Assembly: GCF_056712565.1 (NCBI RefSeq)
Contig: NZ_CM160072.1
Direction: 5' to 3' (one strand)
DNA: 64,000 nucleotides
Made by a program: the position numbers and the translations under genes. Each line of letters begins with the position of its first letter. The first letter of the stretch is position 1. Positions 8,478-63,049 of the stretch are shown one piece after another. The notes beneath the pieces were generated by a model. It worked only from the letters and a program-made list of their open reading frames with translations. It had not been told where the DNA came from and ran no database searches.

Positions 8478-8541
8478 ATAAATTTCGCGTAATTGAAATG
8501 ACAAATTGATAGCAGGGCCCCTTTACCGGGGCCCTGAAGCG

Positions 8542-45519: not shown

Positions 45520-48500
45520 TCAGGCCAGCTCGTCCCAGATATAATCGCTGAATTTATCAAGCAGGTTGTCGAGATTATCGTCAAAGGTTCTTTGTAGCAT
45601 CGCCTTACCGCCGCGGCGGTGGAAGTTGCCGGTTTTGAAGACATCGTCGTCGAGCACCACTTTCTCTTTCAGCGCCTGCGCTAAACGATCGAGCCAGCTT
45701 AATTGCTCGCTGCTCCAGTCGTTTTCACCCTTAATGCGCGTCAGCGCGTGATCGACACGTTCCTCAAACGGTTTCAGCGCATCGCCCACCGCAGCGCGGC
45801 GAATATGACCAATCAGCCGGGCGGCGATATCTTCATTGCGCGTCTCTTTCCATGCTTTGCGCAGGGAAGATTCCTCAAAATGCTGGCGGTCAAACCACTC
45901 CTGGAGCTCGACCAGCCCTTTACGGGTGAGATCGCGCGGGCGATTGATCACCGCCTGCAATGCCGGCTGCGCGTTCGGGGAACGTTGCACCAGCGAGTCA
46001 AAGGCTTCGAGGAAATCCTGCGGCGTGTCGTAATCACCGTACAGCGATTTTACACTCACCACTTCATCGTCGATATCGAGGAAGATCGGCGCATCATTCA
46101 GGTTGTTGATGTCCGTTTTCAGCTTTTCCAGACGGGCGATAAAGCCAGGCAGTTTGTTAAAGACTTCGGCGCTCCAGTGCGGCCCTTTTTCCCGCAGGCG
46201 CGAGGCGAAGCCGTTAAAGTTCACGCCCGCCGCGTCCTGGCATAGCTCATCCAGACGACGCACCTGTTTATCTATCGTTTCGCTGCGGTCACGGTTAAAC
46301 GTGGCCAGGCCGATGATGCGCTGGAGCTTCGCCACCAATTGTTCATGGCTGTGCTCGGCAAAGCTACGGCCATCCGCTTCGGTGATTTTATAGGTTTCTG
46401 AATCGGTAATTTCATTGACCAGCGTTTGCAGTTCCACCTTCGGACGCACCACCACCGGACGCATGGTGTCGACGCTCTCCAGCGTGCTGTAGATATCGAC
46501 ACAGTCGAAAATCTTAAAGCTGGTTTTATTCACGTCCGGGCATAAGCGCGTGGCGCGGCCTTTCATCTGCTCGTACAGAATACGGCTGCGTACTTTACGC
46601 AGGAACACGATATTACAGATCGACGGAATATCGACGCCGGTTGTCAGCAGGTCGACGGTTACCACGATATTGGGCAGCCGCTCTTTATTGAAGCGGGTGA
46701 TCATGGTCTGCACTTTGCGCGCGTCTTTATCGGCATCACCGGTGATCTTGATGATCGCGTCGTGCTCCAGTTGCGGATACTTTTTCTTGAACGCGGTACG
46801 CAACTCTTCCACCACCATATCGGCATGGGCATTGGTAACGCAGAAGACCAGCGTTTTTTGCGACCCGGTCGGGTCAAGGTAGTTGGTGAGCTCGTTACAG
46901 ACGGCGCGGTTAAACGCCGGGATCACCAGGCCACGGTTAAAGTCGGCGACCTCAAAATCCTGATCGTCTTCCAGGGTATCGTTGATCACTTCTCCCTGCG
47001 GGCTGATGCGCTCTACCTGTTCGCCCTTGGAGAGATAAACCCCCTCCTGGGCGTTGCGGGTGATGATCTGAATCGGCGGATCCTGGTCGATCAGAAAACC
47101 GTCGATAACCGCGGTACGGTAGGTATAACGGTAAACCGGCTCGCCGAAAATCTGCACCGTATGCAGCGCCGGGGTGGCGGTGAGGGCGATTTTTACCGCA
47201 TCGAAGTGATCGAGAATGCGACGGTAGGCAGAAACGTAATCCAGCTGGCTGCGGAACTGCAGCTCGCCTTCGGTCTGCTCTTTATCGAGAATATAGCCGC
47301 GATGCGCTTCATCGACGACGATACAGTCGTAACGGGCCACCGGCATCGGTTCATCTGATTGTAGGGTGCGTTTCACCAGCGACTGTACGGTGGCAACGTG
47401 AATTTTGGTGCTGTCTTCGGGGAATTTATCCGTCAGCCCTTTAATGTCGAAAATGCTGTTGAAGGTGTCGCCGTTAATACGCGTATCTTCAAACGCCCCC
47501 AGTGCCTGCTCGCCAAGAGAACGGCGATCGACAAGGAAGAGAATGCGTTTAAAACGCTGGGACTGGATCAGGCGGAACATCATGGCAATTGCGGTGCGGG
47601 TTTTACCGGTACCGGTCGCCATCGCCAGCAGGATCTCTTGTTGACCCTTGACGATTGCCTTTTCCACCGCGCGGACGGCATCTTCCTGGTAATAACGCAG
47701 GCCCAGCTCGCTCATGCCCGGGTTATCGGCAAACCACTGATTCTGTTTTTGCGGTTCGCTGCCGAGCATTTCCAGCAGCTCTTCCGGGCGATGCCACTCG
47801 GGTAAGGCTTTCGACATATTGCGGGTATCACGCACGTCGCGATACCAGATGCCACTTTTAGTCTTCATTGCTGCGCGATATTCGCGCCCGTTGGTGGAGT
47901 AGCAGAAGGGGATTTTAAACCGTTGTTGGCCGCTGGTGTCCTGCCAGCTAGTTTCATACTCCGGCACAGCTTCATGCACTTCATCCGGTGAGTAATGCTC
48001 AAGCAAGGTTTCCCGCAGGAAGCCATTATCGAAGCATTTGCTGTAGCGATACGACTCATTGAGCTTGCCGGGAACGTCGATATTTTTACGTTTCGCCTCT
48101 ACCACCGCGATGGGCTTGAGGCCGACAAACAGCACATAATCCGCAAAGCCCTGATTACCCGTTTCATCTTTCCCGGTCGGCCATTCGGCAATGGCTTTAT
48201 TGACGCCGGGTTCCGGGCGTGCGCCTTTGGAGAAGCGCAGGGTTTTGCTATCGGCCTGCCAGCCTGCTTTACGCAGTTGCGCGTCAATCAGGAAGCGACT
48301 CTCTTCTTCGCTAAGGTTGAGTGTGCGCTTGATGGCCTGATCGGTAATTTCTTTGTGGTAAGCCTTACGTTCCTGTTCGGTCTGTTTGGCCAGCTCCGCG
48401 TTCTTCTCGGCGAGCTGTGCTTCCAGCGCCGCAAGGCGAGCCTGGGTTTGCGCTTCTGTTTCCTGCTGTTTGCCTTCCAGAATGGCGATATAGCCGTTCA

Positions 48501-49032
48501 GGGCAACCAGCTTCTGCTGTTGCGCTTCGACTTCTGCCCGAGTCTGCGCTTTTTCTCGCGCCTGCTGTTCAAGCTGTTGTTTTAGCGTCAGCACTTCCTG
48601 GTGATAGAGGTTTTCGCCACGTTCCGGCAACACAAATACCGGCACCGGGAAGTCATAATCTTTGGTGACCAGACGGTAGTACCAGACAGCCAGGCGGAAC
48701 CCGAGTCGCAGGCACATCTGGGCATCGTCGAGATCGTTATGGTATTCGTGCACCGCCTGGTTACCAATGCGGCGTAATTTGTGGAATACAGAGAGAATGT
48801 TGTCATCAACGAAGGCGATTTTGCCGAGTTCGCGCAGGAGATCGTGTTGATTCTCACAAGGGGGGATGTTGAGTAACAGACCAAGATGTTTCGCTGTAGC
48901 TTCGCCAAACATACGCATTTTAATCAGCGTCGTGTTGGGATCATCCGGGTAGTTATTTTCCGCCGCACAGGCGATGGCATAAGTGAAGTCGTTGACGCCC
49001 TTCAGGAATTCGAAGTTGGATTTATTCATCAT
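45520..49032 (-). CDS. hsdR: Type I restriction endonuclease subunit HsdR
   Basis: 1170-aa ORF with helicase motif I (GTGKTRT) and DEAH-like VVDEAHRG; upstream of hsdM/hsdS. Confidence 0.9.
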   Translation of the reverse strand: MMNKSNFEFLKGVNDFTYAIACAAENNYPDDPNTTLIKMRMFGEATAKHLGLLLNIPPCENQHDLLRELGKIAFVDDNILSVFHKLRRIGNQAVHEYHNDLDDAQMCLRLGFRLAVWYYRLVTKDYDFPVPVFVLPERGENLYHQEVLTLKQQLEQQAREKAQTRAEVEAQQQKLVALNGYIAILEGKQQETEAQTQARLAALEAQLAEKNAELAKQTEQERKAYHKEITDQAIKRTLNLSEEESRFLIDAQLRKAGWQADSKTLRFSKGARPEPGVNKAIAEWPTGKDETGNQGFADYVLFVGLKPIAVVEAKRKNIDVPGKLNESYRYSKCFDNGFLRETLLEHYSPDEVHEAVPEYETSWQDTSGQQRFKIPFCYSTNGREYRAAMKTKSGIWYRDVRDTRNMSKALPEWHRPEELLEMLGSEPQKQNQWFADNPGMSELGLRYYQEDAVRAVEKAIVKGQQEILLAMATGTGKTRTAIAMMFRLIQSQRFKRILFLVDRRSLGEQALGAFEDTRINGDTFNSIFDIKGLTDKFPEDSTKIHVATVQSLVKRTLQSDEPMPVARYDCIVVDEAHRGYILDKEQTEGELQFRSQLDYVSAYRRILDHFDAVKIALTATPALHTVQIFGEPVYRYTYRTAVIDGFLIDQDPPIQIITRNAQEGVYLSKGEQVERISPQGEVINDTLEDDQDFEVADFNRGLVIPAFNRAVCNELTNYLDPTGSQKTLVFCVTNAHADMVVEELRTAFKKKYPQLEHDAIIKITGDADKDARKVQTMITRFNKERLPNIVVTVDLLTTGVDIPSICNIVFLRKVRSRILYEQMKGRATRLCPDVNKTSFKIFDCVDIYSTLESVDTMRPVVVRPKVELQTLVNEITDSETYKITEADGRSFAEHSHEQLVAKLQRIIGLATFNRDRSETIDKQVRRLDELCQDAAGVNFNGFASRLREKGPHWSAEVFNKLPGFIARLEKLKTDINNLNDAPIFLDIDDEVVSVKSLYGDYDTPQDFLEAFDSLVQRSPNAQPALQAVINRPRDLTRKGLVELQEWFDRQHFEESSLRKAWKETRNEDIAARLIGHIRRAAVGDALKPFEERVDHALTRIKGENDWSSEQLSWLDRLAQALKEKVVLDDDVFKTGNFHRRGGKAMLQRTFDDNLDNLLDKFSDYIWDELA

Positions 49033-49219
49033 TGTTATTAATCCATTGCTGTGTGGGCCTGTCCAAATATTTAAGGCCCATAACGCCCTATCTTAGCTTT
49101 CTGTACCTTTCCGGGCAATGACCGGAGTCACAGCAACTGACTCATTTCTAACGTGTTCGTCTATTTTGGTAGTGTTATAGTAGCCGAAAAACATCTACCT
49201 GATTCTGCAAGGATGTACT

Positions 49220-50134
49220 ATGACGGTTCCTACCTATGACAAATTTATTGAACCTGTTCTGCGTTATCTGGCAACAAAACCGGAAGGTGCAGCCGCGCGT
49301 GATGTTCATGAGGCTGCCGCGGATGCATTAGGACTGGATGACAGCCAGCGATCGAAAGTCATTACCAGCGGACAACTTGTTTATAAAAATCGTGCAGGCT
49401 GGGCACATGACCGTTTAAAACGTGCCGGGTTGTCGCAAAGTTTGTCGCGTGGCAAATGGTGCCTGACTCCTGCGGGTTTTGACTGGGTTGCGTCTCATCC
49501 CCAGCCAATGACGGAGCAGGAGATGAACCATCTGGCCTTCAATTTTGTGAATGTCAAACTTAAGTCACGGCCGGATGCCGTCGATTTAGATCCGAAAGCC
49601 GACTCTCCCGATCATGAAGAACTTGCAAAGAGCAGCCCGGACGATCGGTTAGATCAGGCGCTAAAAGAGCTTCGTGATGCGGTGGCTGATGAGGTTCTGG
49701 AAAACTTATTGCAGGTTTCTCCTTCGCGCTTTGAAGTCATTGTTCTGGATGTTTTGCATCGCCTGGGGTATGGCGGCCACCGTGATGATTTGCAGCGTGT
49801 TGGCGGTACTGGAGATGGTGGCATCGATGGTGTGATATCGCTTGATAAACTTGGCCTGGAGAAAGTTTATGTTCAGGCAAAACGTTGGCAGAATACTGTA
49901 GGCAGGCCAGAATTACAGGCATTTTACGGCGCACTGGCTGGGCAAAAAGCGAAACGTGGGGTGTTTATTACCACTTCTGGATTTACTTCTCAGGCGCGTG
50001 ACTTTGCCCAATCCGTCGAGGGTATGGTGTTGGTTGATGGGGAACGCCTGGTGCACTTAATGATCGAAAACGAAGTAGGGGTTTCTTCACGTTTGTTGAA
50101 GGTGCCGAAACTGGATATGGATTATTTTGAGTGA
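49220..50134 (+). CDS. mrr: Mrr type IV restriction endonuclease (modified-DNA dependent)
   Basis: 304-aa ORF divergent from hsdR, as in K-12. Confidence 0.85.
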   Translation: MTVPTYDKFIEPVLRYLATKPEGAAARDVHEAAADALGLDDSQRSKVITSGQLVYKNRAGWAHDRLKRAGLSQSLSRGKWCLTPAGFDWVASHPQPMTEQEMNHLAFNFVNVKLKSRPDAVDLDPKADSPDHEELAKSSPDDRLDQALKELRDAVADEVLENLLQVSPSRFEVIVLDVLHRLGYGGHRDDLQRVGGTGDGGIDGVISLDKLGLEKVYVQAKRWQNTVGRPELQAFYGALAGQKAKRGVFITTSGFTSQARDFAQSVEGMVLVDGERLVHLMIENEVGVSSRLLKVPKLDMDYFE

Positions 50135-50142
50135 AATATCAG

Positions 50143-50172
50143 GCCGGATGCGGCTGCGCCTTATCCGGCCCA
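50143..50172. repeat. REP-like palindrome
   Basis: GCCGGATGCGGCTGCGCCTTATCCGGCC. Confidence 0.55.
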
Positions 50173-50179
50173 TAACCCC

Positions 50180-51136
50180 TTACTTCCTCAACCCCGCAAA
50201 CGCCGCCCGAATCTCATCCTCCGGCAGCTGAATCCCGATAAACACCATCGTGCTATGCGGTTTTTCATCGCCCCACGGCCTGTCCCAGTCGGCGCTGTAG
50301 AGGCGCTGGACGCCCTGGAACAGCAGGCGGTTAGGTTCGCCGTCAATCCACAGCATCCCTTTGTAACGCAGCAGTTTATCTGCCGATTCCAGCAGCAGGT
50401 TTTCCATCACGCGGGAAACTTCGCTGATATCTACCGGGTAATCCAGTTCCACCACAATCGACGAAATATCGTTTTGTTTGTCCGCGATAAAGTGAAAACG
50501 TGGCTTGGTGCTGACGACGTTTTCTTCCAGCATAAAACCGTTGGTGTTGAACAACAGGCCCAGGTCGATGTCGCCGTGGGTGACGGTGTAGACCGGTGCA
50601 CGGGCGTTGATGCGCGCCAGGCGTTCACGCAGTTTTTCTGCTTCGCCTGCGACGTCGGTTTTAGTCAGCAGAATACGGTCGGCGTAGCCAACCTGGGACT
50701 GGGCGATGGTGAACTGGTTCATCTGCTCATCGGCATGTACCGCATCCACCAGCGCAATCACGCCATCCAGCAGGTAACGCTGGCATAAAATCTCATGGGA
50801 GAAAAAGGTCTGAATAATCGGGCCGGGATCGGCCATGCCGGTGCATTCAATGACCAGACGGTCGAACTGAATATTGCCCTTGTCGAGATTATCCAGCAGG
50901 TCGAGTAGGGCGTCTTCCAGCTCGTTGGAGCGCGAACAGCAGATGCAGCCGTTGGTCAGCGTTTTGATCTGCGTGGCGCGGTCGCCAATCAGTTGATCAT
51001 CAACGGAGACTTCGCCGAATTCGTTTTCAATCACGGCAATCTTGTAGCCGTGTTGTTCGTTAAGAATATGGCGCAGCAGGGTGGTTTTTCCTGCGCCTAA
51101 AAAACCGGTGAGTAGGGTAACTGCAATCGGGTTCAT
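50180..51136 (-). CDS. yjiA: COG0523 GTPase YjiA (G3E family)
   Basis: ORF 50180-51220; start set at MNPIAVTLLTGFLGAGKTTLLRHIL (P-loop), 318 aa. Confidence 0.85.
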   Translation of the reverse strand: MNPIAVTLLTGFLGAGKTTLLRHILNEQHGYKIAVIENEFGEVSVDDQLIGDRATQIKTLTNGCICCSRSNELEDALLDLLDNLDKGNIQFDRLVIECTGMADPGPIIQTFFSHEILCQRYLLDGVIALVDAVHADEQMNQFTIAQSQVGYADRILLTKTDVAGEAEKLRERLARINARAPVYTVTHGDIDLGLLFNTNGFMLEENVVSTKPRFHFIADKQNDISSIVVELDYPVDISEVSRVMENLLLESADKLLRYKGMLWIDGEPNRLLFQGVQRLYSADWDRPWGDEKPHSTMVFIGIQLPEDEIRAAFAGLRK

Positions 51137-51146
51137 GCTCTCTCCA

Positions 51147-51350
51147 TTAACAACAGCGCATACCGCCTTTACCATCGCCGCCGTAGCGCGCGTTCTGGCG
51201 TTCGCGGAAGAATTCTTCATAGCTCATGTACGGCTTGTCGGGATGGTTGGTCTTCATATGCTCGACGTAGTTGTCGTAGTCTGGAATGCCAATCAACATC
51301 TTCGCCGCCTGGCCGAGATATTTTTTTGCCTGTCCTAAGTTACCAAACAT
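51147..51350 (-). CDS. yjiX: Small protein YjiX (DUF466), 67 aa
   Basis: Short ORF immediately downstream of btsT and upstream of yjiA. Confidence 0.75.
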
Positions 51351-51392
51351 TTTGCCTTCCAGATATGCGTAAAGCCCGGAAGGTCCGGGCTG

Positions 51393-51430
<38 letters not shown>

Positions 51431-51467
51431 TACGATAGCCATTTTGTAAGCCGGATAAGGCAACCGG

Positions 51468-53618
51468 TTAGTGGTGCGAAGAGATCTTCACGCCGCCTTC
51501 CGGGATTGGAACGTACGGTGTTTCTTTGTCAGTACGTTTGTCGCTGTTACGCACCTTCAGCCAGGTTTTGAAACCGTAGAAGATGATGCTGTACACCACA
51601 ATCAGGAACAGAATACTCAGGCCTGCGTTGGTGTAGTTGTTCACAACGATGTGGTTCATGTTGGCAATCTGCTGCGCCGTCAGGTCAGTACCGTTAGCAA
51701 TCTTCTCTTTGTACTGGCTCGCCATGTAGAAGAAGCCTTCCATCTGCGGGTTGGTGCTGAACAGTTTCAGGCCCAGCGCCCAGGTGGTGCAGATAAGCAG
51801 CCATACTGCCGGGATAACGGTAACCCAGATGTATTGGGTGCGCTTCATCTTAATCAGTACAACGGTGCCCAGTACCAGCGCCACGGCTGCCAGCATCTGG
51901 TTGGAGATACCGAACAGCGGCCACAGGCTCTTAACGCCGCCCAGCGGATCGACCACGCCCTGATACAGCAGGTAGCCCCACAGACCCACACAGCCCGCAG
52001 TACCGATGATACCGGCAACCAGAGAGTCGGTTTTTTTCAGGAACGGGATGAAGTTACCCAGCAGGTCTTGCAGCATAAAGCGGCCAGAACGGGTACCCGC
52101 ATCCAGCGCGGTCAGGATGAACAGGGCTTCGAACAGAATACCGAAGTGATACCAGAAGCCCATGTCAGCCATCGGCAGCACTTTGTGGAACACGTGAGCG
52201 ATACCTACCGCCAGCGTTGGCGCACCACCTGCACGGTTCAGGACAGAAGGCTCACCAATGTCTTTCGCGGTTTGCAGGATCTGCTCTGGCGAAATCACGA
52301 AGCCCCAGGAGCTGACGGTCGCTGCCGCGTGTGCGGTAACGTCTTTCAGCTGTGCCATGATGATCGGCGCGTTCTCGCCACCCATTTCATGCAGGTTAGG
52401 CATGGTGATGCCGAGGCCAGCAGGCGGGGTGTTCATCGCGAAGTAAAGACCCGGTTCGATGATGGACGCAGCAACCAGCGCCATAATCGCCACGAAGGAC
52501 TCCATCAGCATTGCGCCGTAGCCGATGAAACGCGCGTCGGTTTCATTAGCCAGCAGTTTCGGCGTCGTGCCGGAAGAGATCAGCGCGTGGAAGCCAGATA
52601 CCGCACCACAGGCGATGGTGATGAACAGGAACGGGAACAGAGCGCCTTTCCACAGCGGGCCAGTACCGTCAATGTACTGGGTCATGGCAGGCATTTTCAG
52701 TTCCGGGTTCAGCACCACGATACCCAGCGCCAGGCCGACGATAACGCCGATTTTCAGGAAGGTTGCCAGATAGTCGCGCGGTGCGAGGATCAGCCACACT
52801 GGCAGCAGTGCGGAAACAAACGCATAGCCAATCAGCGCGAAAGTAATGGTGGTATCTTTAAAGGTCAGTGCCGGACCCCAGTACGGATCGTGAGCAATCA
52901 CGCCACCGAAGTAGATAGAGGCAACCAGCAGCACGATACCAATGACAGAGACTTCACCCACACGCCCCGGACGAATAAAGCGCATGTAGATACCCATAAA
53001 CAGCGCAATCGGTACGGTTGAGCAAACGGTGAAGACCCCCCACGGACTTTCGGCCAGGGCTTTAACCACAATCAGTGCCAGAACGGCGAGGATGATGATC
53101 ATGATTAAGAAACAGCCAAACAGCGCGATAGTCCCCGGTACTGGTCCCATCTCTTCTTTGATCATCTCACCAAGAGATGCGCCGTTACGGCGAGAGGAGA
53201 TAAACAGCACCATAAAGTCCTGAACCGCACCGGCCAGCACGACCCCCGCCAGCAGCCACAGCGTGCCAGGCAGGTAGCCCATCTGCGCGGCGAGAACCGG
53301 ACCCACCAGCGGACCAGCACCGGCGATAGCGGCGAAGTGGTGACCAAACAACACGTAACGGTTGGTCGGAACGTAGTTCAGACCGTCGTTGTTAATAACC
53401 GCAGGCGTCGCGCGCGTGGGGTCGAGTTTCATCACCTTCTGGGCGATGTACAGACTGTAGTAGCGATACGCCACCAGATACACCGACACAGAGGCGACCA
53501 CGATCCACAGGGCGCTGACGTGCTCCCCCCGACGTAATGCAACTACCGCGAGGCAGAATGCACCGATGATTCCGAGAATCACCCAAGGTATGTGCTTGAA
53601 TATCTTTTTAGTATCCAT
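51468..53618 (-). CDS. btsT: Pyruvate/H+ symporter BtsT (YjiY), CstA family
   Basis: ORF 51468-53633; start set at MDTKKIFKHIPWVIL (716 aa); large polytopic membrane protein. Confidence 0.85.
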   Translation of the reverse strand: MDTKKIFKHIPWVILGIIGAFCLAVVALRRGEHVSALWIVVASVSVYLVAYRYYSLYIAQKVMKLDPTRATPAVINNDGLNYVPTNRYVLFGHHFAAIAGAGPLVGPVLAAQMGYLPGTLWLLAGVVLAGAVQDFMVLFISSRRNGASLGEMIKEEMGPVPGTIALFGCFLIMIIILAVLALIVVKALAESPWGVFTVCSTVPIALFMGIYMRFIRPGRVGEVSVIGIVLLVASIYFGGVIAHDPYWGPALTFKDTTITFALIGYAFVSALLPVWLILAPRDYLATFLKIGVIVGLALGIVVLNPELKMPAMTQYIDGTGPLWKGALFPFLFITIACGAVSGFHALISSGTTPKLLANETDARFIGYGAMLMESFVAIMALVAASIIEPGLYFAMNTPPAGLGITMPNLHEMGGENAPIIMAQLKDVTAHAAATVSSWGFVISPEQILQTAKDIGEPSVLNRAGGAPTLAVGIAHVFHKVLPMADMGFWYHFGILFEALFILTALDAGTRSGRFMLQDLLGNFIPFLKKTDSLVAGIIGTAGCVGLWGYLLYQGVVDPLGGVKSLWPLFGISNQMLAAVALVLGTVVLIKMKRTQYIWVTVIPAVWLLICTTWALGLKLFSTNPQMEGFFYMASQYKEKIANGTDLTAQQIANMNHIVVNNYTNAGLSILFLIVVYSIIFYGFKTWLKVRNSDKRTDKETPYVPIPEGGVKISSHH

Positions 53619-53830
53619 AGTAAAACCTGGCATGTATTGATTAATAGTTGGCCGAAGCCGTTCTAGGTTTGCGTTGCGTTTGAGGAGGTAAATTGACCGC
53701 TATCCTGCAGTGATGTTGCCAGAGTTACGCGCGCGTAAAGTAAGGTAAATAACTGAGTGGTTATTTTAGGGACGTAAGCGGTCAGGAATGGCGGTGAGCG
53801 GCAAAGGCGTCGTTTAAGTGACCATAAATA

Positions 53831-53846
53831 TGTGATTTATATCACA
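53831..53846. promoter_or_regulatory. Candidate CRP binding site upstream of btsT
   Basis: TGTGATTTATATCACA is a perfect TGTGA-N6-TCACA palindrome, about 215 bp upstream of the btsT start. Confidence 0.6.
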
Positions 53847-53994: not shown

Positions 53995-55650
53995 ATGTTA
54001 AAACGTATCAAAATTGTGACCAGCCTACTGCTGGTTTTGGCCGTTTTTGGCCTTTTACAACTGACTTCAGGCGGTCTGTTCTTTAATGCCTTAAAGAACG
54101 ACAAAGAAAATTTCACTGTTTTACAAACCATTCGCCAGCAGCAATCCACGCTGAATGGCAGCTGGGTCGCTTTGTTGCAGACGCGTAACACCCTCAACCG
54201 CGCGGGTATCCGCTACATGATGGATCAGAACAATATTGGTAGCGGTTCAACCGTTGCTGAGCTGATGCAGAGTGCCAGTATTTCGCTGAAACAGGCGGAA
54301 AAAAACTGGGCGGATTACGAAGCGTTGCCGCGTGACCCGCGTCAGAGCACCGCCGCAGCGGCAGAGATCAAACGTAATTACGATATTTATCACAATGCGC
54401 TGGCGGAGCTGATACAACTGTTAGGTGCAGGCAAAATCAACGAGTTCTTTGATCAGCCGACCCAGGGATATCAGGACGGTTTCGAGAAGCAGTATGTGGC
54501 TTACATGGAGCAAAACGATCGGCTCTATGATATCGCCGTCAGCGATAACAATGCCTCCTACAGCCAGGCGATGTGGATTCTGGTAGGCGTGATGATCGTC
54601 GTACTGGCGGTCATCCTCGCCGTCTGGTTCGGTATTAAAGCCTCGCTGGTAGCGCCAATGAATCGCCTGATTGACAGCATTCGTCATATTGCAGGCGGCG
54701 ATCTGGTGAAACCGATTGAGGTGGATGGCTCTAATGAGATGGGGCAACTGGCAGAGAGTTTGCGCCATATGCAGGGAGAGCTGATGCGTACCGTCGGTGA
54801 TGTGCGCAACGGGGCCAATGCCATCTATAGCGGTGCCAGCGAAATCGCCACCGGCAATAACGATCTCTCTTCGCGCACCGAGCAACAGGCCGCTTCGCTG
54901 GAAGAGACGGCAGCCAGCATGGAGCAACTGACCGCAACGGTGAAACAGAATGCCGAAAATGCGCGCCAGGCCAGCCATCTGGCGTTAAGTGCTTCCGAAA
55001 CGGCGCAACGCGGCGGCAAAGTGGTGGATAACGTGGTGCAGACCATGCGCGATATCTCCACCAGTTCGCAGAAAATCGCCGATATTATCAGCGTAATTGA
55101 CGGCATTGCCTTCCAGACCAATATTCTGGCTTTGAACGCGGCGGTTGAGGCTGCGCGTGCGGGTGAGCAAGGACGCGGTTTTGCGGTGGTCGCGGGAGAA
55201 GTGCGTAATCTGGCCCAGCGTAGCGCTCAGGCTGCTCGTGAAATTAAAAGCCTGATTGAAGACTCGGTGGGGAAAGTGGATGTTGGCTCTACGCTGGTCG
55301 AAAGCGCCGGGGAAACAATGGCGGAGATTGTCAGTGCCGTGACCCGCGTGACGGACATTATGGGCGAAATTGCTTCTGCTTCTGATGAGCAGAGCCGTGG
55401 TATCGATCAGGTTGGCTTAGCGGTTGCTGAGATGGACCGGGTAACTCAACAGAACGCCGCGCTGGTGGAAGAATCTGCCGCCGCCGCCGCCGCGCTGGAA
55501 GAACAGGCCAGTCGCCTGACCGAAGCAGTGGCAGTGTTCCGGATTCAGCAACAGCAGCGTGAAGCATCGGCTGTGGTAAAAACCGTGACGCCAGCTACGC
55601 CGCGCAAAATGGCCGTGGCAGATAGCGAGGAGAACTGGGAAACGTTTTAA
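53995..55650 (+). CDS. tsr: Methyl-accepting chemotaxis protein I (serine chemoreceptor) Tsr
   Basis: 551-aa ORF with TM1, periplasmic domain, HAMP and conserved signalling domain ([41 protein letters not shown]) and C-terminal NWETF. Confidence 0.95.
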
Positions 55651-55659
55651 CGTAATGAT

Positions 55660-55690
55660 GCCGGATGAGTATTTCATCCGGCGTTTTTAT
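55660..55690 (+). terminator. Rho-independent terminator after tsr
   Basis: Stem GCCGGATGA/TCATCCGGC with 5-nt loop followed by GTTTTTATT; immediately after the tsr stop. Confidence 0.7.
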
Positions 55691-55692
55691 TA

Positions 55693-56964
55693 TTAAACCA
55701 GGAACAGTGAAATCGCCGGGATATATGTCACCAGCATTAGCATTAACAGTAGAGCCGCCAGTAGGGGCAGGGATTGTTTAAAGAAATTTCCCACCGAAAC
55801 TTGCGTGATATTACATACCAGCAGCATCACGGTACCTACCGGTGGCGTGAATGCGCCAATCGACAGGTTGAAGATCATGATGATGCCAAAATGCACCGGA
55901 TCGATGCCAAAGTGTTCGACCACCGGTTTTAATAGTGGTACCAGGATCAGCAAAATGGCGTTTCCTTCCAGAAACATCCCCAGCGTCAGCAGCAATATGT
56001 TGATAATCAACAGGAACATGTATTTGTTTTCGGTCAGCGAAGTCACAAAATTCGCCACTGCGACACCAGCATGTTCCATTGAGAAAATCCATCCCAATGC
56101 GGCGCTGGCCATGATTACCAGCATCACCGATGCGGTTGCGCGTGCCGTTTCGCCCAATGCTTTGACGACATGAGAAATCCGCATTTCACGATAGATAAAA
56201 AAGCCAATCGCCAGCACGATTAGCACCGCTACTGCACCTGCTTCTGTTGGGGTGAAAATGTTAGCGCGAATACCACCCACCACAGCAAAAATGAGGAACA
56301 GCGCAGGCCAGGCCTGTCCCAGCGAGAACACCACCTCTTTGCCCGTAGGCCAGCTTTCACGCGAGGGTTTAGCGTTAGTTTTGCGGGCGACAAGGTAGAC
56401 GGTAAACATCAGTACGACTGCGCATAGCAAACCAGGTACCAGTCCGGCGATAAACATTTTTCCGATAGAGACATCGGCAACCAGACCGTAAATAATCAGG
56501 GCTATTCCAGGCGGTATGATCGGGGTGACTAACGAGCCACCAGCGGTAATGGCGGCGGCAAACGCGCGATTGTAGCCTTTACGTTCCATCTCCGGCACCA
56601 TCATGCGCGACAGCATCGCCGCGTCAGCAAGGTTAGAGGCGCTGACGCCGCCCATCATGGTGCTGACGAGAATGTTTGCCACGCCCAGTCCGCCGCGCAT
56701 TTTCCCCACCAGAACGTTGGCAATGTGCAGGATGCGTTCGGCAATGCCGGTGTAGCTCATTAGTGTGCCGAGCAAGATAAAAAACGGAATTGCCAGCAAT
56801 GATGGGCTTTGCGTTGGCGCGATTAGTCTTTGCACGGCAATTTCAATCGGTACGCTGGAGAAGAATAAAAAGTAAGCGATGATGCCAATAAACATCGCCA
56901 GATAGACCCGAATGTTGAGAAACAAACAGACGATCATTAGCGGAATAATCAATAACCAACTCAT
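55693..56964 (-). CDS. TRAP transporter large permease (DctM family)
   Basis: 423-aa polytopic ORF; 4-nt overlap with the upstream DctQ-like gene. Confidence 0.8.
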   Translation of the reverse strand: MSWLLIIPLMIVCLFLNIRVYLAMFIGIIAYFLFFSSVPIEIAVQRLIAPTQSPSLLAIPFFILLGTLMSYTGIAERILHIANVLVGKMRGGLGVANILVSTMMGGVSASNLADAAMLSRMMVPEMERKGYNRAFAAAITAGGSLVTPIIPPGIALIIYGLVADVSIGKMFIAGLVPGLLCAVVLMFTVYLVARKTNAKPSRESWPTGKEVVFSLGQAWPALFLIFAVVGGIRANIFTPTEAGAVAVLIVLAIGFFIYREMRISHVVKALGETARATASVMLVIMASAALGWIFSMEHAGVAVANFVTSLTENKYMFLLIINILLLTLGMFLEGNAILLILVPLLKPVVEHFGIDPVHFGIIMIFNLSIGAFTPPVGTVMLLVCNITQVSVGNFFKQSLPLLAALLLMLMLVTYIPAISLFLV

Positions 56965-57434
56965 TGCATTTTGTCTCCGCTATCGGATTGTTTTGTATCG
57001 TTTATTAACCAGTAGAGGGTATAAATAGCCGTTGCCAGTGCGCCGACAGGGACCGCCAGATCGATCCAGAACCAGGAAACTTTCAGAATTTGTGTCACTT
57101 TAAACTGCGCCATTTCGGCTAGTCGGTAGCCCAGCCAGGCCATATAAAGCAGCAGTGCGATGGAGAGAAGGGCGACCAGTACTGCAATAACACGCCTGAG
57201 TTTGCCTGGAAGCATCTCCATCAGGAAGGGAATGGTCAGGTGCGCCCTGTCACGTTCCGCCACCACTCCACCTAACATCACCACCCAAATCATCAGCATT
57301 CCCGACATTTCTTCTGTCCATTGAAGCGGTTGGCCGATGAAATAACGCATAAATACCGCTCCAATTGTCACCACAACCAGAACGAATAGCGCAAAGGCAG
57401 CACTAAATTCTGCCACTTTGCCAAAAAGACGCAT
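56961..57434 (-). CDS. TRAP transporter small permease (DctQ family)
   Basis: 157-aa ORF with four predicted TM helices between the DctP-like and DctM-like genes. Confidence 0.75.
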   Translation of the reverse strand: MRLFGKVAEFSAAFALFVLVVVTIGAVFMRYFIGQPLQWTEEMSGMLMIWVVMLGGVVAERDRAHLTIPFLMEMLPGKLRRVIAVLVALLSIALLLYMAWLGYRLAEMAQFKVTQILKVSWFWIDLAVPVGALATAIYTLYWLINDTKQSDSGDKMQ

Positions 57435-57497
57435 GAAACCTCCTGTTAGTGCGTGTCCTGCCTAAGAGAGATGAGGCAGGACGCTGAGCATTAATGC

Positions 57498-58469
57498 TTA
57501 TTGCAGTTGCTGTTGAATGGTTTCGTACAGACCTGGTGTCCATTCCGGGAATTGAGAGTAAACTTCGCGTGCTTTCTTCTGGAATGGTCCAGTATCGGGA
57601 TAGATCACTTCGACGCCGGCTGCCTGCATGGTTTTCAACATTTCGGCATCACGCTCAAGAGTGAGTTTCTGGCTATAGACACCCGCTTCATAGCCGGTCT
57701 GGTGGATCATCTCCAGTTGTTCTGGTGAAAGGGTGCTAAAGAAGGCTTCACCACCTATCCACACTGAGGTATTTGTCAGGTAGTTAACCATTGTCAGATA
57801 TCTTGCCTGCTCATACAGTTTTTGCCCTTGCAGCACTGAAATTGGGTTTTCTACGCCGTCAATAACGCCCTGGGTTAATGCGGGATAAACTTCGCCTAAT
57901 GGCATGGGAGTTGGTGTTGCCCCCATCGCCTGAATGGCTTTTATTTGCATGACGTTATTAGGAACGCGAATTTTTAAACCTGCGAGATCGTCAACGGTGC
58001 GAATGGGTTTTTTCGAAATAATCTGTCGAGTGCCATAGAGATAATTATTCATTACCACATGAATTCCCTTTTTCTTCAGACTTTCATTTTTTTGTTTAAA
58101 CCAGTCGCTTTCATATATTTTGAACAGTTTTTGCGGATCGTCAGTCAGATACGGTCCAAACAAAATCCCCAAATCGGGTTCATAATCGGCAAGAAAAGCC
58201 ACATCACTCAAGGTTATGACATTCATGCCCATCATGGCTTGCTCGGTGACATCCTGTTTTGATCCCAATTGGGAGCTGGGATAGAGCGCAAGTGTTATTT
58301 CGCCATTACTTTTTTTATTTAATAGGTCTGCCCAGTAACGCATGACCACATCCAGGGGTTCTCCAGGGTTATTTTCATAGGCAACTTTTATTGAAATAGG
58401 TTTTGCCTGGATTATTGACGGTAAAAAAAGGGTACTGACAGTAATTAGCATCGCTATTATTTTGCTCAT
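57498..58469 (-). CDS. TRAP transporter periplasmic solute-binding protein (DctP family)
   Basis: 323-aa ORF with signal peptide MSKIIAMLITVSTLFLPSIIQA; first gene of a dctPQM-type operon; AT-rich codon usage. Confidence 0.8.
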   Translation of the reverse strand: MSKIIAMLITVSTLFLPSIIQAKPISIKVAYENNPGEPLDVVMRYWADLLNKKSNGEITLALYPSSQLGSKQDVTEQAMMGMNVITLSDVAFLADYEPDLGILFGPYLTDDPQKLFKIYESDWFKQKNESLKKKGIHVVMNNYLYGTRQIISKKPIRTVDDLAGLKIRVPNNVMQIKAIQAMGATPTPMPLGEVYPALTQGVIDGVENPISVLQGQKLYEQARYLTMVNYLTNTSVWIGGEAFFSTLSPEQLEMIHQTGYEAGVYSQKLTLERDAEMLKTMQAAGVEVIYPDTGPFQKKAREVYSQFPEWTPGLYETIQQQLQ

Positions 58470-59159
58470 CTTTACTTACTCCATGCTAAGGAAATAAAAC
58501 TCCAACATTGTTGTCGGGAGTGAAACCTTATGAAAAAGCAGTCATTACTGAAAAGTAGTCAGCGAATAGCAGAATGGCTGCAGATGTATCATAAATTCGT
58601 GCACCGGGTAATACTTTGCTGCTTTTAATCGGTTTTTAATGCATTTTTTGATTGTATATCTTAAAGTTATGTAATGCATGACGTTACAAGGAACACCCTC
58701 TGATGAGTTTAGTTACCGCTGATAAGATCTCTTATTCTGTTGATGATTTATTAAAAATAAAATCATTAATTTGGCTGCGGCCATTTTAAATTGTCAATAC
58801 AGATAAAAACTAAGTGTTGACGCAGAATGGTGGTATCCATTAAATTTATTTAGTGCTGATTTAATACATTTGCTGAACGTATAATTCATGCTGATATTAA
58901 AAGAAAACCGTCATTCACTAAATAACTTGTTCGGCAAGGAAATCAGAGAGTAACGGATGATTCGTTACAACGGGGAAAGGCAGTAAATATTCACGTGGTG
59001 AATTTGTTATCAACTTGAAAACTCATTTTACTGGGTTCCTTCTGATCATGTGAGTGAACGCAGTGATTAATGATTAACGTTAAGTGCTAACCAGAGCGCT
59101 TTTTATGAAGTTAAATTAATAATATCCATTATTTATGAATGAGGAAGCCTGTTTATTAT

Positions 59160-60812
59160 ATGGAAATACTTTTAACAATTTTAATTCTTACGTTGGTAGT
59201 ATCATTAACCAGCGTGCTTACACGTCTGTCTCCTGTCCAGATACCACTTCCTTTAATCCAGATTGCCGCTGGCGCAGTACTGGCCCAGCCTATATTTGGT
59301 CTGCATGTGGAATTCAATCCTGAACTTTTTCTCTTATTGTTTATACCACCCCTGTTGTTTGCTGAAAGTTCAAAAATACAACCTAAAGAATTGATCAAGC
59401 ACAGCCGGGAAATTATCAGCCTGGCACTTGTGTTGGTACTAATCACTATTTTTTGTGTCGGCTATGTGATTCATTTACTCTTACCGAATGTGCCGCTCAT
59501 CGCTGCTTTCGCATTAGCCGCCGTGTTGTCGCCTACCGATGCCGTGGCGTTGCTGGGGATTGTCGGGAAAGGGCGTATCAGCAAAAACATCCAGGAAGTG
59601 CTCGAAGGCGAAGCGTTGATGAATGATGCTTCCGGCCTGGTGGCGTTGAAATTTGCTGTTGCAGTGACGATGGGAACGATGGAATTCAGCGTTCATGGCG
59701 CAACCATTGCGTTTTTTGTCGTTGCGTTGGGCGGTATTGCCGTGGGGATCGCTGTTACCTGGTTATATGGTAAAGGGCTGCTGTTGATCAGCCGATATGC
59801 TCACGATGAACCTTCCATTCAGATTGTATTGATGCTTCTGTTGCCGTTTATTGTTTATCTGGTTGCGGAACATTTTGGCTTATCTGGCATTCTTGCCGCT
59901 GTCGCCGCGGGGTTAACAACCAGTCGCATTGGTGTAGTCCACCACGCGCCTATTCGCCTGAGAATTAAAGCTAAAAGTAGCTGGTCGATGCTTGAATATG
60001 TCTTTAACGGCATGGTGTTTCTGATTTTAGGCTTACAACTGCCGGGCATTATTTCGGAATCACTGATCCGTGCAGAAAACGATCCACTGGTGGACACCGG
60101 ATCGCTGCTCCTTGATGTCATTTGGATCTACCTGGCGTTAATGGTTGTGCGCCTGGGCTGGCTTTGGCTGATGCGTCTGTATAGCCGTAAACGACCCGGC
60201 AAACATCCGATGCTGTTTGCTGGATATAAAACGCGTCATATGCTGCTGGCGACCTTTGCGGGGGTGCGCGGAGCTATCACGCTTGCGGGGGTGCTTTCTA
60301 TCCCGTTATTGCTGCCGGATGGCACACCTTTTCCCGGGCGTTACTTGCTGGTATTTCTCGCCACAGGTGTGATCCTCTTTTCGCTGGTTTGCGGCATTAT
60401 TATTCTGCCGTTATTACTGGGGAAAAATGTGGGGATTTTCAGCGATAACCGACAAAAAGAAGAGGAAGCTGCCGATCTGTTTATGGCTAAAATGGCCATA
60501 CTGAGTGTGCAAAAGACCGAGCAACGTTTGCTGCGCGCCAGAACAGAAAACCTCGATAACGAGTTGATTATGGAAACGGGGGCCAGAGTTATCGGTTATA
60601 TGCGACATAGTGAAGAGGATATGTCGCCTAATGATAATTCCCTGCATATGCAGCGTGCGAAGCTGGAAAGAACATTTAATCTGGCGGCGTTAAATGCCAA
60701 ACGCGCGGCTATTTACCAGATGCGCGCAAGGCAAGAAGTCAGTGATGAAACACTGGCAAAAATAGTCAGTGAATTAGATGTGCTGGAAACGTTAATCATG
60801 GATAGCCGATAA
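59160..60812 (+). CDS. CPA1-family Na+/H+ (cation/proton) antiporter
   Basis: ORF 59139-60812; start likely MEILLTIL; N-terminal transport domain with NhaP-like motifs (SPTDAVALLG, EGEALMNDASGLV) and a long cytoplasmic tail. Confidence 0.75.
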   Translation: MEILLTILILTLVVSLTSVLTRLSPVQIPLPLIQIAAGAVLAQPIFGLHVEFNPELFLLLFIPPLLFAESSKIQPKELIKHSREIISLALVLVLITIFCVGYVIHLLLPNVPLIAAFALAAVLSPTDAVALLGIVGKGRISKNIQEVLEGEALMNDASGLVALKFAVAVTMGTMEFSVHGATIAFFVVALGGIAVGIAVTWLYGKGLLLISRYAHDEPSIQIVLMLLLPFIVYLVAEHFGLSGILAAVAAGLTTSRIGVVHHAPIRLRIKAKSSWSMLEYVFNGMVFLILGLQLPGIISESLIRAENDPLVDTGSLLLDVIWIYLALMVVRLGWLWLMRLYSRKRPGKHPMLFAGYKTRHMLLATFAGVRGAITLAGVLSIPLLLPDGTPFPGRYLLVFLATGVILFSLVCGIIILPLLLGKNVGIFSDNRQKEEEAADLFMAKMAILSVQKTEQRLLRARTENLDNELIMETGARVIGYMRHSEEDMSPNDNSLHMQRAKLERTFNLAALNAKRAAIYQMRARQEVSDETLAKIVSELDVLETLIMDSR

Positions 60813-60982
60813 TTTTATCGCTGCCAGTAATAGGGAATTAAATGATGGCTGAGAGTAATACTTCCAGCATCGTTTATTCCCTATGTATTTCCTTATGGGC
60901 AGAACAATCGCCTGGATTAATACTGCATTAATACAACATAGTGATATAAACCAAGAATCAATGTTTTTAATCTGTACTTAAT

Positions 60983-61888
60983 TTATCGGTGATGTTGCCT
61001 GATGGAACGAATCATTGATTGTTTGGCGGTATCCAGATGGTTTCGCAACGCCGTTATTGCATCTAAATCGCTACGGCAAATCAGGGCGCTGAGAATGGTC
61101 ATATGTTCATCAACAGCAATGATATTGCGCTGTTTGAGATCGCTTTCATCCCATTGATAGTGAAAATGAAAGATCACCGATATAATTTCAAGTGATTGAT
61201 TAAAAAAGATGTTGTCAGCAGCGGATAACAGCATGGCATGAAAATCACGGTCTAATTGAGAAAACATTCGAAAGTTGCTGCCAATGCTGTCGCGCAATGT
61301 CCTGTGACGTTCGAGCATGGTTTTCGCCTGCAACCAGCGAGGGTCATCATCGGGAAGGTTGAGAAAGTGTTGCAGGGAATGTGTTTCGAGCATTTCGCGT
61401 AGCTCAAACAGCTGCTCGGCGTAGGATTGATCGAACTGCTTCATGCTCCATTGGCCGCGCTTTTCGCTTTGAATAAGATTATAACGACCGAATTTCAAAA
61501 GATATTCTCGTACCACTACCGGACTGACGCTTGCCGCTCGCGCCAGCTGAAGTTCGGAAAAGCTTTCTCCGGCGCGTAACTGGCGCAGGTTAATCATGGT
61601 GAAAAATGCCTGCTCGAAAAGACGGTTTTGCTCTTTCAGCGAGGCCGTGATGCAATCAAATCCATCGTTCTGTTCGGGTTTGCGGGCGATAACATAATTT
61701 TTCCCCACCAGGGTGAGCACGCCACATGCGCTTAAATGCTGGAGTATGTGGCGTACCGTAGTGCGACTGATGTTATACATTTCTGCCAGTCCGCTTTGTG
61801 AAGGCAGCGGAGAAGGAATATTGCCCCTCGCCATATCTTCAATCACCTGATTTATGACGCTATGACGTAAATTCTGCGAACGACTCAT
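60983..61888 (-). CDS. lgoR: GntR-family regulator LgoR (YjjM)
   Basis: 301-aa ORF with N-terminal HTH; divergent from lgoD as in K-12. Confidence 0.75.
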   Translation of the reverse strand: MSRSQNLRHSVINQVIEDMARGNIPSPLPSQSGLAEMYNISRTTVRHILQHLSACGVLTLVGKNYVIARKPEQNDGFDCITASLKEQNRLFEQAFFTMINLRQLRAGESFSELQLARAASVSPVVVREYLLKFGRYNLIQSEKRGQWSMKQFDQSYAEQLFELREMLETHSLQHFLNLPDDDPRWLQAKTMLERHRTLRDSIGSNFRMFSQLDRDFHAMLLSAADNIFFNQSLEIISVIFHFHYQWDESDLKQRNIIAVDEHMTILSALICRSDLDAITALRNHLDTAKQSMIRSIRQHHR

Positions 61889-62026
61889 TCTTCCCTCCAG
61901 TCCGGCATTAAAAGCCGATTTAAAACATTTTTATGCGCGATCATCCGCATATTTTATGGGTAAATTCAGGCGCTCTTATAAATTCGACGATATCTGAAAG
62001 TCATAAAATAAAAGGAGCGGTGAATC

Positions 62027-63049
62027 ATGTCCACAATGAAAGTATTAATTTGTCAGGAAATAAAGAATTTAGTATGGGAAGTCCGGGAAAGACCGGTGCC
62101 AGGCGATAATGAAGCATTAATTAAAATTAAAACTGTCGGGATTTGCGGTACAGATATTCATGCCTGGGCGGGCAATCAGCCATTTTTTAGTTATCCACGC
62201 GTTTTAGGCCATGAAATATGTGGGGAGATTATTGAATCAGGAAAAAACATTCACAATTTTAATATCGGACAGCAAGTTGCGGTAATTCCGTATATTTCTT
62301 GTCAGCAATGCCCGGCGTGTAAAAGCGGTCGTACCAATTGCTGTGAAAAAATTTCAGTCATGGGCGTGCATCAGGATGGCGGTTTTAGTGAGTATTTGAG
62401 CGTGCCGGTGGCGAACATTTTGCCCGCAGACGGTATTGACCCGCAGGCGGCAGCATTGATTGAACCTTTCGCTATTAGCGCTCATGCGGTGCGTCGTGCA
62501 GCCATTGCACCCAGCGAGCAGGTGCTGGTGGTCGGGGCGGGGCCAATCGGTCTGGGCGCGGCGGCAATCGCTAAAGCCGATGGCGCGCAGGTGGTGGTGG
62601 CGGATACCAGTCCGGCGCGTCGTGAACATGTGGCAACGCGTCTGGAATTACCTGTTCTGGACCCGTCAGCCGAAGATTTTGACGCGCAGCTGCGGGCGCA
62701 GTTTGGTGGTTCGCTGGCGCAGAAAGTGATTGACGCGACAGGTAATCAACATGCGATGAATAACACCGTAAATCTGATTCGTCACGGCGGCACGGTGGTA
62801 TTTGTCGGCCTGTTTAAAGGTGAGTTGCAGTTCTCCGATCCGGAATTCCATAAAAAAGAAACGACGATGATGGGCAGCCGCAACGCCACGCCGGAAGATT
62901 TCGCTAAAGTCGGTCGATTGATGGCGGAAGGGAAAATCACTGCCGACATGATGTTAACCCATCGCTATCCGTTCGCCACGCTGGCAGAAACCTACGAGCG
63001 CGATGTGATTAACAATCGTGAGTTGATTAAGGGCGTAATTACTTTCTGA
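62027..63049 (+). CDS. lgoD: L-galactonate 5-dehydrogenase LgoD (YjjN), Zn-dependent MDR family
   Basis: 340-aa ORF with catalytic-Zn motif (GHEICGEI), structural-Zn Cys cluster and Rossmann motif VVGAGPIGLGAA. Confidence 0.85.
   Translation: MSTMKVLICQEIKNLVWEVRERPVPGDNEALIKIKTVGICGTDIHAWAGNQPFFSYPRVLGHEICGEIIESGKNIHNFNIGQQVAVIPYISCQQCPACKSGRTNCCEKISVMGVHQDGGFSEYLSVPVANILPADGIDPQAAALIEPFAISAHAVRRAAIAPSEQVLVVGAGPIGLGAAAIAKADGAQVVVADTSPARREHVATRLELPVLDPSAEDFDAQLRAQFGGSLAQKVIDATGNQHAMNNTVNLIRHGGTVVFVGLFKGELQFSDPEFHKKETTMMGSRNATPEDFAKVGRLMAEGKITADMMLTHRYPFATLAETYERDVINNRELIKGVITF

Follow-up and report, generated by a model that had tools for sequence, protein, structure and literature searches.

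The interval between tsr and lgoR was analysed in a window of 64,000 nucleotides, that is, the whole stretch of E. coli DNA considered here, from contig NZ_CM160072.1 of RefSeq assembly GCF_056712565.1. The flanking genes, btsT and tsr on one side and lgoR', lgoD and opgB on the other, are the same as in K-12, where the interval is filled by lgoT (b4356), which encodes a major facilitator superfamily (MFS) permease. In the window, this slot holds a minus-strand operon for a DctP-type tripartite ATP-independent periplasmic (TRAP) transporter and a divergent gene for a CPA1-family Na+/H+ antiporter. An initial annotation of this DNA had described much of this arrangement. Its placement of lgoT between tsr and lgoR is that of the K-12 locus, its minus-strand coordinates for dctM, dctQ and dctP are those of the listing of open reading frames (ORFs), and its divergent 550-aa Na+/H+ antiporter is borne out by the start at 59160 and by a TIGR00831 score above cut-off. 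It also reported no MFS transporter ORF in the interval, in agreement with a tblastn search with K-12 LgoT that found no homologue in the whole 64-kb window (best E = 1.5); no LgoT match was found at the CFT073 locus either. The features of the locus are the following.

53995-55650, plus strand: tsr, the upstream neighbour, as in K-12
55651-55692: terminator candidate and left haplotype boundary, a hairpin GCCGGATGA...TCATCCGGC followed by a T-run, between the convergent tsr and dctM
55693-56964, minus strand: dctM-type TRAP large permease, 423 aa
56961-57434, minus strand: dctQ-type TRAP small permease, 157 aa, its stop overlapping the dctM start by 4 bp
57498-58469, minus strand: dctP-type periplasmic solute-binding protein, 323 aa, with a signal peptide ending in IIQA before KP
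58590-58645, minus strand: conserved block 5' of dctP, with a candidate LgoR box copy
58643-60963, plus strand: apparent secondary insertion of ~2.3 kb, comprising the antiporter gene and its AT-rich flanks
59160-60812, plus strand: CPA1-family Na+/H+ antiporter, a YjcE paralogue, 550 aa
60964-60982, minus strand: degenerate box copy directly 3' of the lgoR' stop, ATTAAGTACAGATTAAAAA
60983-61888, minus strand: lgoR', a divergent allele of the gene for the GntR/FCD regulator LgoR, 301 aa
61907-61925, plus strand: candidate LgoR box in the lgoR'-lgoD divergent promoter region, ATTAAAAGCCGATTTAAAA
62027-63049, plus strand: lgoD, L-galactonate 5-dehydrogenase, with the right-hand recombination boundary inside it at ~62370

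Every sequence-level test of membership places the predicted products of the operon in a DctP-type TRAP transporter. DctP scores 179.5 bits against TIGR00787 (cut-off 175) and 177.7 bits against NF037995 (cut-off 50), and DctM, which is 94% identical at the amino acid level to its Citrobacter farmeri orthologue, scores 400 bits against TIGR00786 (cut-off 268). DctQ gives a weak YiaM match; its syntenic orthologues, 74-80% identical, bear the Pfam domain PF04290 (DctQ), and those of DctM bear PF06808. The N-terminus of DctP reads as a signal peptide, MSKIIAMLITVSTLFLPSIIQA, followed by KP. Its residues K166-x-R168, the carboxylate-binding K-x-R motif of strand 6, are invariant in an alignment of 40 homologues, and the role of the equivalent K143 and R145 has been described in SiaP (PMC9971032). 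The nearest solved structures are PDB 4OVT (E = 6e-147), which is Oant_3902 from Ochrobactrum (Brucella) anthropi, and 4O8M (E = 9e-81), from Actinobacillus succinogenes and 42% identical. An AlphaFold (AF2) model built on a 40-sequence alignment has a predicted local distance difference test (pLDDT) score of 87.9 and matches 4OVT with a TM score of 0.85-0.91 and ~70% identity over 300 residues, so that the predicted fold is that of TRAP binding proteins; a single-sequence model (pLDDT 34) was unusable and was set aside.

The arrangement is widespread within the species. Among 5426 complete E. coli genomes, the 5.3-kb TRAP-antiporter interval is found at full length (at least 80% query coverage) in 859 (~16%), with identity of at least 99% in 600 genomes and of 95-99% in 264. 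Carriers include the uropathogen CFT073 and avian extraintestinal pathogenic E. coli (ExPEC) strains, and the Prokaryotic Genome Annotation Pipeline (PGAP) annotates all four genes in them. The lgoT gene is present in 4520 genomes and lgoR-lgoD in 5392, the latter falling into 883 window-like and ~4507 K-12-like alleles, class sizes that match the counts of the two transporter types. Since the 4520 lgoT genomes and the ~864 TRAP genomes together are fewer than those with lgoR-lgoD, and since the alleles track the transporter, the two arrangements behave as alternative states of one locus. This comparison of the tsr-lgoR interval across genomes, which the initial annotation had called for, thus gives near-complementary distributions of lgoT and the TRAP cassette, and no indication of an lgoT copy elsewhere in TRAP genomes.

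The two states differ by more than the transporter genes. Identity to K-12 is 98% through the tsr stop codon (55650), after which homology is lost until 60962; it then amounts to ~80% over lgoR, 61-68% in the lgoR-lgoD spacer and ~80% over the first 340 bp of lgoD, and is back to 97-100% from ~62370. The first 345 nt of lgoD are 82% identical to K-12 and the remainder 97.5%, and all but two of the differences in LgoD (93% identical at the amino acid level) lie within its first 112 residues. LgoR' is 87% identical to K-12 LgoR. As homology breaks at the tsr stop and inside lgoD, the haplotype spans ~6.7 kb, from 55651 to ~62370. The initial annotation had overlooked the divergence of lgoR and of the first ~340 bp of lgoD, as well as the presence of yjcE in K-12 and the fact that the arrangement is common and already annotated.

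The same TRAP operon occurs at the same place in another genus. Citrobacter farmeri and C. amalonaticus have the syntenic order opgB-lgoD-lgoR(301 aa)-dctPQM-(acetyltransferase)-tsr-...-btsT, without the antiporter, and the lgoR-dctP gap of C. farmeri is only 172 bp. Nucleotide identity between the window and C. farmeri is 87% in the yjiA-btsT block (50182-53846), 81% in tsr, 78% in the TRAP operon and 82.5% in opgB; the divergence of the TRAP operon is thus about that of the flanking core genes. For lgoR, identity is 79.6% between the window and K-12, 77.6% between the window and C. farmeri, and 78.3% between K-12 and C. farmeri. Synonymous divergence (dS) is 1.66 for lgoR between the window and K-12 and 1.14 for tsr between the window and C. 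farmeri. With all three lgoR alleles at about the same distance from one another, the TRAP haplotype is of genus-level age, with no recent import from a distant donor, and two lgoR alleles as diverged as those of different genera coexist in E. coli. Ratios of nonsynonymous to synonymous divergence (dN/dS) against Citrobacter of 0.017 for dctM, 0.074 for dctQ and 0.029 for dctP point to strong purifying selection and hence to functional genes. In C. farmeri, a GNAT acetyltransferase gene lies between dctM and tsr (locus L003, 11879-12394) and an Ldh_2-family gene between tsr and btsT; neither gene is present in E. coli, which indicates that this neighbourhood changes readily between genera.

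A conserved element of 19 bp links the regulator, the dehydrogenase and the transporter. The pattern ATTAAAA-N-CCGATT-N-AAAA (ATTAAAANCCGATTNAAAA) has three matches in the 64-kb window against 0.28 expected, all of them at the lgo locus: 5' of lgoD (61907-61925), with no mismatch at specified positions; 5' of dctP (58622-58640, ATTAAAAACCGATTAAAAG), with one mismatch; and directly 3' of lgoR' (60964-60982), with three mismatches, where K-12 has the same variant at the same position (locus L002, 9924-9942). The window, K-12, C. farmeri and Pectobacterium share the lgoD-proximal box, in the same place and without mismatch, and all four genomes have a copy 3' of lgoR with zero to three mismatches. 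The box also precedes K-12 lgoT, a further Pectobacterium copy lies 290 bp upstream of dctP, and its orientation relative to each downstream operon is the same. The block at 58590-58645 has its homologue immediately 3' of the lgoR stop in K-12, C. farmeri and Pectobacterium, and the lgoD-proximal box pairs with 58620-58642 as an inverted repeat (I1). The box is proposed as a candidate LgoR operator; the lgo genes of K-12 are induced on L-galactonate (bioRxiv 10.64898/2026.05.20.726482). In Pectobacterium, a box without mismatch (locus L005, 6370-6388) and the conserved block lie 3' of lgoR with no transporter gene downstream, dctPQM following lgoD instead; this copy may be left over from an earlier arrangement of lgoR with a transporter, or the box may have a function connected with lgoR itself.

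The substrate can be approached through the gene context. In K-12, deletion of lgoT abolishes growth on L-galactonate (bioRxiv 10.64898/2026.05.20.726482). As LgoT is the sole K-12 route for this sugar acid, strains that lack lgoT and keep lgoR' and lgoD intact need another importer, and in the TRAP haplotype both genes are intact and under purifying selection. Linkage of the operon to lgoR and lgoD recurs in Pectobacterium, with a different gene order (lgoR divergent from lgoD-dctPQM) at an unrelated chromosomal site. Near dctP in 66 related loci, an LgoD-like Zn-dehydrogenase is present in 58, a UxaA-like dehydratase in 42 and a UxaB-like reductase in 34, which together are the enzyme set that leads from L-galactonate to 2-keto-3-deoxygluconate (KDG). 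The 4OVT and 4O8M proteins stand among TRAP systems with known ligands in a compilation drawn from published reviews and from Vetting et al., and secondary sources place L-galactonate and L-fuconate among the ligands of the TRAP binding-protein screen of Vetting et al. (2015).

Taken together, these data favour, with reasonable confidence, an ancient alternative haplotype of the E. coli lgo locus, in which the MFS permease LgoT has been replaced by a TRAP importer under LgoR control that takes up L-galactonate and possibly L-fuconate. Most likely, the TRAP system would take up the same sugar acid by another route and with higher affinity. The suggestion of the initial annotation that the TRAP system takes up the substrate of LgoD under LgoR control accordingly gains computational support on several sides: the closeness of DctP to presumed sugar-acid binding proteins of solved structure, the linkage to lgoR-lgoD in the two gene orders of Citrobacter and Pectobacterium, the LgoD-like dehydrogenase near most dctP relatives, the near-complementarity of lgoT and the TRAP cassette and, as to control by LgoR, the conserved box common to the upstream regions of lgoD and of the transporter operon. 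In the proposed mechanism, DctP would capture L-galactonate, and probably also its 6-deoxy analogue L-fuconate, through the conserved R168 and hand it to the elevator-type permease DctQM, which would import it on a cation gradient, probably of Na+. LgoD would then oxidise L-galactonate to D-tagaturonate, which would enter the UxaB/UxaA/KdgK/Eda route, whose genes lie at other places in the genome. The co-inherited LgoR' probably controls expression through the 19-bp box that precedes lgoD and the transporter operon, and the CPA1 antiporter would have come later, on the 2.3-kb insertion between lgoR' and dctP.

Several points weigh against this reading. The ligands of 4OVT and 4O8M, presumed to be L-fuconate and L-galactonate, respectively, have to be counted as assumptions. 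The dehydrogenases of the alphaproteobacterial loci are only 30-40% identical to LgoD, so that their substrate could differ, and the Affinibrenneria and Edaphovirga orthologues have neither lgoR nor lgoD within 8 kb. PGAP labels DctP a 'C4-dicarboxylate TRAP transporter substrate-binding protein'. The 19-bp box, putative as an LgoR site, is AT-rich and is not a palindrome. The Na+ sites consist mostly of backbone carbonyls, which makes their conservation weak evidence on the coupling ion. Finally, the literature searched yielded no published work or experiment on this locus, a 2026 paper on BEN2908 concerning a different TRAP cluster.

The antiporter is a clear member of its family. It scores 526 bits against TIGR00831 (cut-off 280) and is 58% identical at the amino acid level to K-12 YjcE, itself annotated only as a putative transporter. 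Its longest ORF form covers 59139-60812 (plus strand, 557 aa), and the start at 59160, which gives 550 aa, is the one that matches homologues and PGAP. It carries TD at residues 126-127 (SPTDAV, 124-129) and ND at 155-156 (MNDA, 154-157), which correspond to the CPA1 ion-binding motifs of transmembrane helices 4 and 5 in NhaP structures. On sequence-level membership it belongs to CPA1, and Na+/H+ exchange is predicted. The ~175 bp 5' of dctP (58470-58645) are collinear with the lgoR-dctP spacer of C. farmeri, and a shorter copy of the post-lgoR sequence still adjoins the lgoR' stop (60964-60982), so that the gene appears to have arrived later, as a ~2.3-kb insertion between lgoR' and dctP (~58643-60963). 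The insertion is flanked by two imperfect 19-bp box copies (58622-58640 and 60964-60982); the ~19-bp repeats on either side are these box copies and carry no insertion sequence (IS) signature. The nearest relatives outside Escherichia, 76-77% identical, are found in Klebsiella sp. I138, Limnobaculum and Edaphovirga, to whose spacers the spacer upstream of the window antiporter shows no homology. The ordinary yjcE of E. coli, Salmonella, Brenneria and Budvicia lies after ghxP (yjcD). Chimeric yjcE/antiporter genes are present on two public contigs, one with yjcE 5' and antiporter 3' parts (L075, 8001-9653) and one the reverse (L080, 1133-2782). Their crossover points differ, their parent genes are ~62% identical at the nucleotide level, and they bring ghxP next to lgoR', and dctP next to the LysR-family gene found after yjcE. 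As these junctions are absent from all 5426 complete genomes, they are probably assembly chimeras, and they were rejected as new antiporter contexts.

A possible, if rather unlikely, explanation for the pairing is that TRAP transporter and antiporter form one module, in which sugar-acid import is coupled to Na+ and the antiporter expels the Na+ in exchange for H+, so that import would effectively be driven by the proton-motive force. In E. coli the antiporter always accompanies the TRAP operon (859 genomes, at least 80% of the 5.3-kb query), and its 77% identical relatives in Klebsiella sp. I138 (L074, 4177-9650) and in a Limnobaculum metagenome-assembled genome (L079, 1912-7433) also lie divergently beside a TRAP operon. 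That operon, with a GntR/FCD regulator, is of an unrelated subfamily (DctP of 353 aa, DctQ of 177 aa and DctM of 493 aa), its DctP being ~20% identical to that of the window and 95% identical between the two genomes. DctM itself aligns with PpSiaM (7QHA_B, E = 2.5e-79). It conserves the Na1 serines shown to be essential there (S106/S108, corresponding to S108/S110), the Na2 threonine (T369, corresponding to T373), glycines G325 and G366, the acidic E329 and both twin-proline motifs. This conservation fits Na+ coupling, though it is no proof of it, and makes recycling of sodium by the adjacent antiporter plausible; SiaPQM-type transport is strictly Na+-dependent according to two reports (PMC9971032; PMC10774421). 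Against such a module, C. farmeri, C. amalonaticus and Pectobacterium have the same TRAP operon without an adjacent antiporter, the Edaphovirga orthologue (76%) lies among plasmid-like ParA/ParG/Rep3 genes ~100 kb from the TRAP operon of that genome, and no box is found near the antiporter start, the nearest being ~520 bp upstream. YjcE is already present in nearly every E. coli genome, and E. coli also has NhaA and NhaB. Only two independent pairings have been seen, so that chance may account for them, and it is unlikely that a YjcE-like Na+/H+ antiporter was recruited at least twice beside unrelated TRAP operons (in E. coli and in Klebsiella sp. I138/Limnobaculum) to form a local sodium circuit. 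If this were the case, an enteric bacterium would run a Na+-coupled, binding-protein-dependent importer on proton-motive force, and the E. coli lgo locus would be a natural within-species experiment, with LgoT set against TRAP plus a Na+ recycler in a dimorphism of genus-level age.

Less probable still is that the TRAP system imports some other organic acid, for instance a C4-dicarboxylate or a different aldonate or uronate, and lies beside lgoR-lgoD by chance, L-galactonate uptake having been lost. The PGAP product name, the unconfirmed ligands of the closest structures and the low identity to LgoD of the dehydrogenases beside distant orthologues would all agree with this, and the specificity of TRAP binding proteins can shift through few substitutions. 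Loss of L-galactonate uptake is, however, hard to reconcile with an lgoR' and an lgoD that are intact and under purifying selection. A chance neighbourhood sits poorly with the linkage of the same TRAP orthologue to lgoR-lgoD in two gene orders in other genera, with the upstream box shared with lgoD, and with the UxaA-like and UxaB-like genes that adjoin most orthologues.

That the whole TRAP-antiporter block is a genomic island recently acquired from a distant donor is very unlikely: the low GC content of dctP (43.6%) and of the spacers around the antiporter gene (33.6% towards dctP and 33.5% towards lgoR') relative to the window (49.1%), the restriction of the block to ~16% of E. coli genomes, the alphaproteobacterial affiliation of the nearest DctP relatives beyond Enterobacterales and the insertion of the antiporter part would speak for it, but the TRAP operon has the same chromosomal position in Citrobacter with near-core divergence, the linked lgoR allele belongs to a three-way split at 78-80% nucleotide identity, the GC content of dctM (50.6%) and dctQ (49.4%) is ordinary, the interval is free of integrase genes, IS elements and further ORFs of 150 aa or more, and the block is not carried by plasmids. 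The AT-richness pointed out in the initial annotation is thus real, but confined to dctP and the two spacers, the antiporter gene itself having 47.8% GC. The acquisition it was taken to suggest does not hold for the TRAP operon: synteny with Citrobacter and the measured divergence led to the rejection of a recent horizontal transfer, and the antiporter module alone has the look of a secondary insertion. At 55651-60982, where tRNA genes were not scanned, there are no mobile-element genes, and the four transporter ORFs are the only ones of at least 150 aa. No true copy of DctP or of the antiporter was found on plasmids, the sole close match being a mislabelled 4.9-Mb chromosome.

An inverted repeat (I2, 55644-55698) covers the tsr-dctM hairpin, which is probably a bidirectional terminator; a promoter and terminator scan gave counts no higher than the shuffled expectation. 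An Rfam scan of 55600-62100 (E <= 1) returned zero matches and hence no known riboswitch or small RNA in the long AT-rich spacer. Further upstream, the yjiX-btsT spacer (51351-51464) is ~68 bp longer than in K-12 and holds palindromic repeats of the repetitive extragenic palindromic (REP) type, GCCGGATGCGGCGTAAACGCCTTATCCGGCCTAC, an ordinary REP-element polymorphism. The region 5' of yjiA (48001-51350) is K-12-like, with hsdR and mrr at 97.9% identity, and CFT073 has a DUF262 gene there instead (locus L001, 1-520). As the two TRAP carriers differ at this point, the haplotype is unlinked to any one version of the restriction ('immigration control') region.

An ancient exchange of LgoT for a TRAP importer, if correct, would be a clean natural case of non-orthologous transporter displacement within one species. 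L-galactonate and L-fuconate derive from pectin and fucose, and TRAP systems typically have sub-micromolar affinity. Most E. coli would rely on a proton symporter with a Km of ~37 uM and ~16%, including CFT073 and avian ExPEC, on a TRAP system instead, a switch that could alter which strains scavenge L-galactonate or L-fuconate in the gut or urinary tract. For genes at present annotated as 'C4-dicarboxylate TRAP transporter', the evidence argues for a specific name, and the locus supplies a candidate operator for the uncharacterised regulator LgoR and, in its CPA1 antiporter-TRAP pairing, a testable idea on sodium cycling. Two features stand out as more unusual, the dimorphism of alleles at genus level in one species and the repeated pairing of TRAP systems with YjcE-like antiporters; none of these results overturns current understanding.

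The predicted importer can finally be set beside known systems. Oant_3902 (4OVT, EFI target 510153), the closest solved structure to DctP, shares the K-x-R motif common to the family. The orthologous Brucella operon follows an LgoD-like Zn-dehydrogenase gene and lies beside UxaA-like, UxaB-like and GntR/FCD genes, whereas the E. coli lgo locus has only lgoR' and lgoD, without uxaA or uxaB, and an antiporter inserted upstream. LgoT (YjjL) is encoded in the same slot of the chromosome, immediately 3' of lgoR, and is preceded by the same conserved block and box. As the sole L-galactonate importer of K-12, it is an H+-coupled MFS/ACS transporter with a Km of ~37 uM (bioRxiv 10.64898/2026.05.20.726482); it is a single-subunit proton symporter, whereas the TRAP system is a tripartite, binding-protein-dependent and probably Na+-coupled elevator with no detectable sequence similarity to it. 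The SiaPQM systems of H. influenzae and P. profundum have the same DctP-type architecture and provide the mechanistic model, a Na+-driven 'elevator with an operator', but their substrate is another one, their binding protein is only ~27% identical, and the Q and M subunits, separate here, are fused in HiSiaQM. YiaMNO, the K-12 TRAP transporter for 2,3-diketo-L-gulonate, supplies the best equivalog-level NCBIfam matches of DctM (YiaN) and DctQ (YiaM). The scores fall well short of the equivalog cut-offs (240 against 800 bits for DctM and 36 against 260 for DctQ), so that the present system belongs to a different subfamily at a different locus, and identity with YiaMNO is ruled out. Among E. coli CPA1 proteins, YjcE has the same family, length and TD and ND motifs as the antiporter (58% identity), which is nonetheless a separate paralogue from a subgroup found beside TRAP operons or plasmid-like genes. 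The nearest counterpart within the genus is a second TRAP cluster of E. coli and E. albertii, with a DctP 72-73% and a DctM 76-77% identical to those of the window and likewise coupled to an LgoD-like dehydrogenase. It adjoins Fapy-DNA-glycosylase-family and AbrB-family genes (loci L009, L010, L012 with dctP at 8001-8966, and L071) and is carried by ~106 complete E. coli genomes as well as by the reference genomes of E. albertii and E. whittamii; one genome, NZ_CM142667.1, has both this cluster and lgoT. Unlike the lgo locus, it is a self-contained catabolic cluster located elsewhere, with genes for a GntR regulator, an RraA-like aldolase, a Zn-dependent alcohol dehydrogenase, a short-chain dehydrogenase/reductase and a SAF/UxaA-like dehydratase next to its dctPQM.

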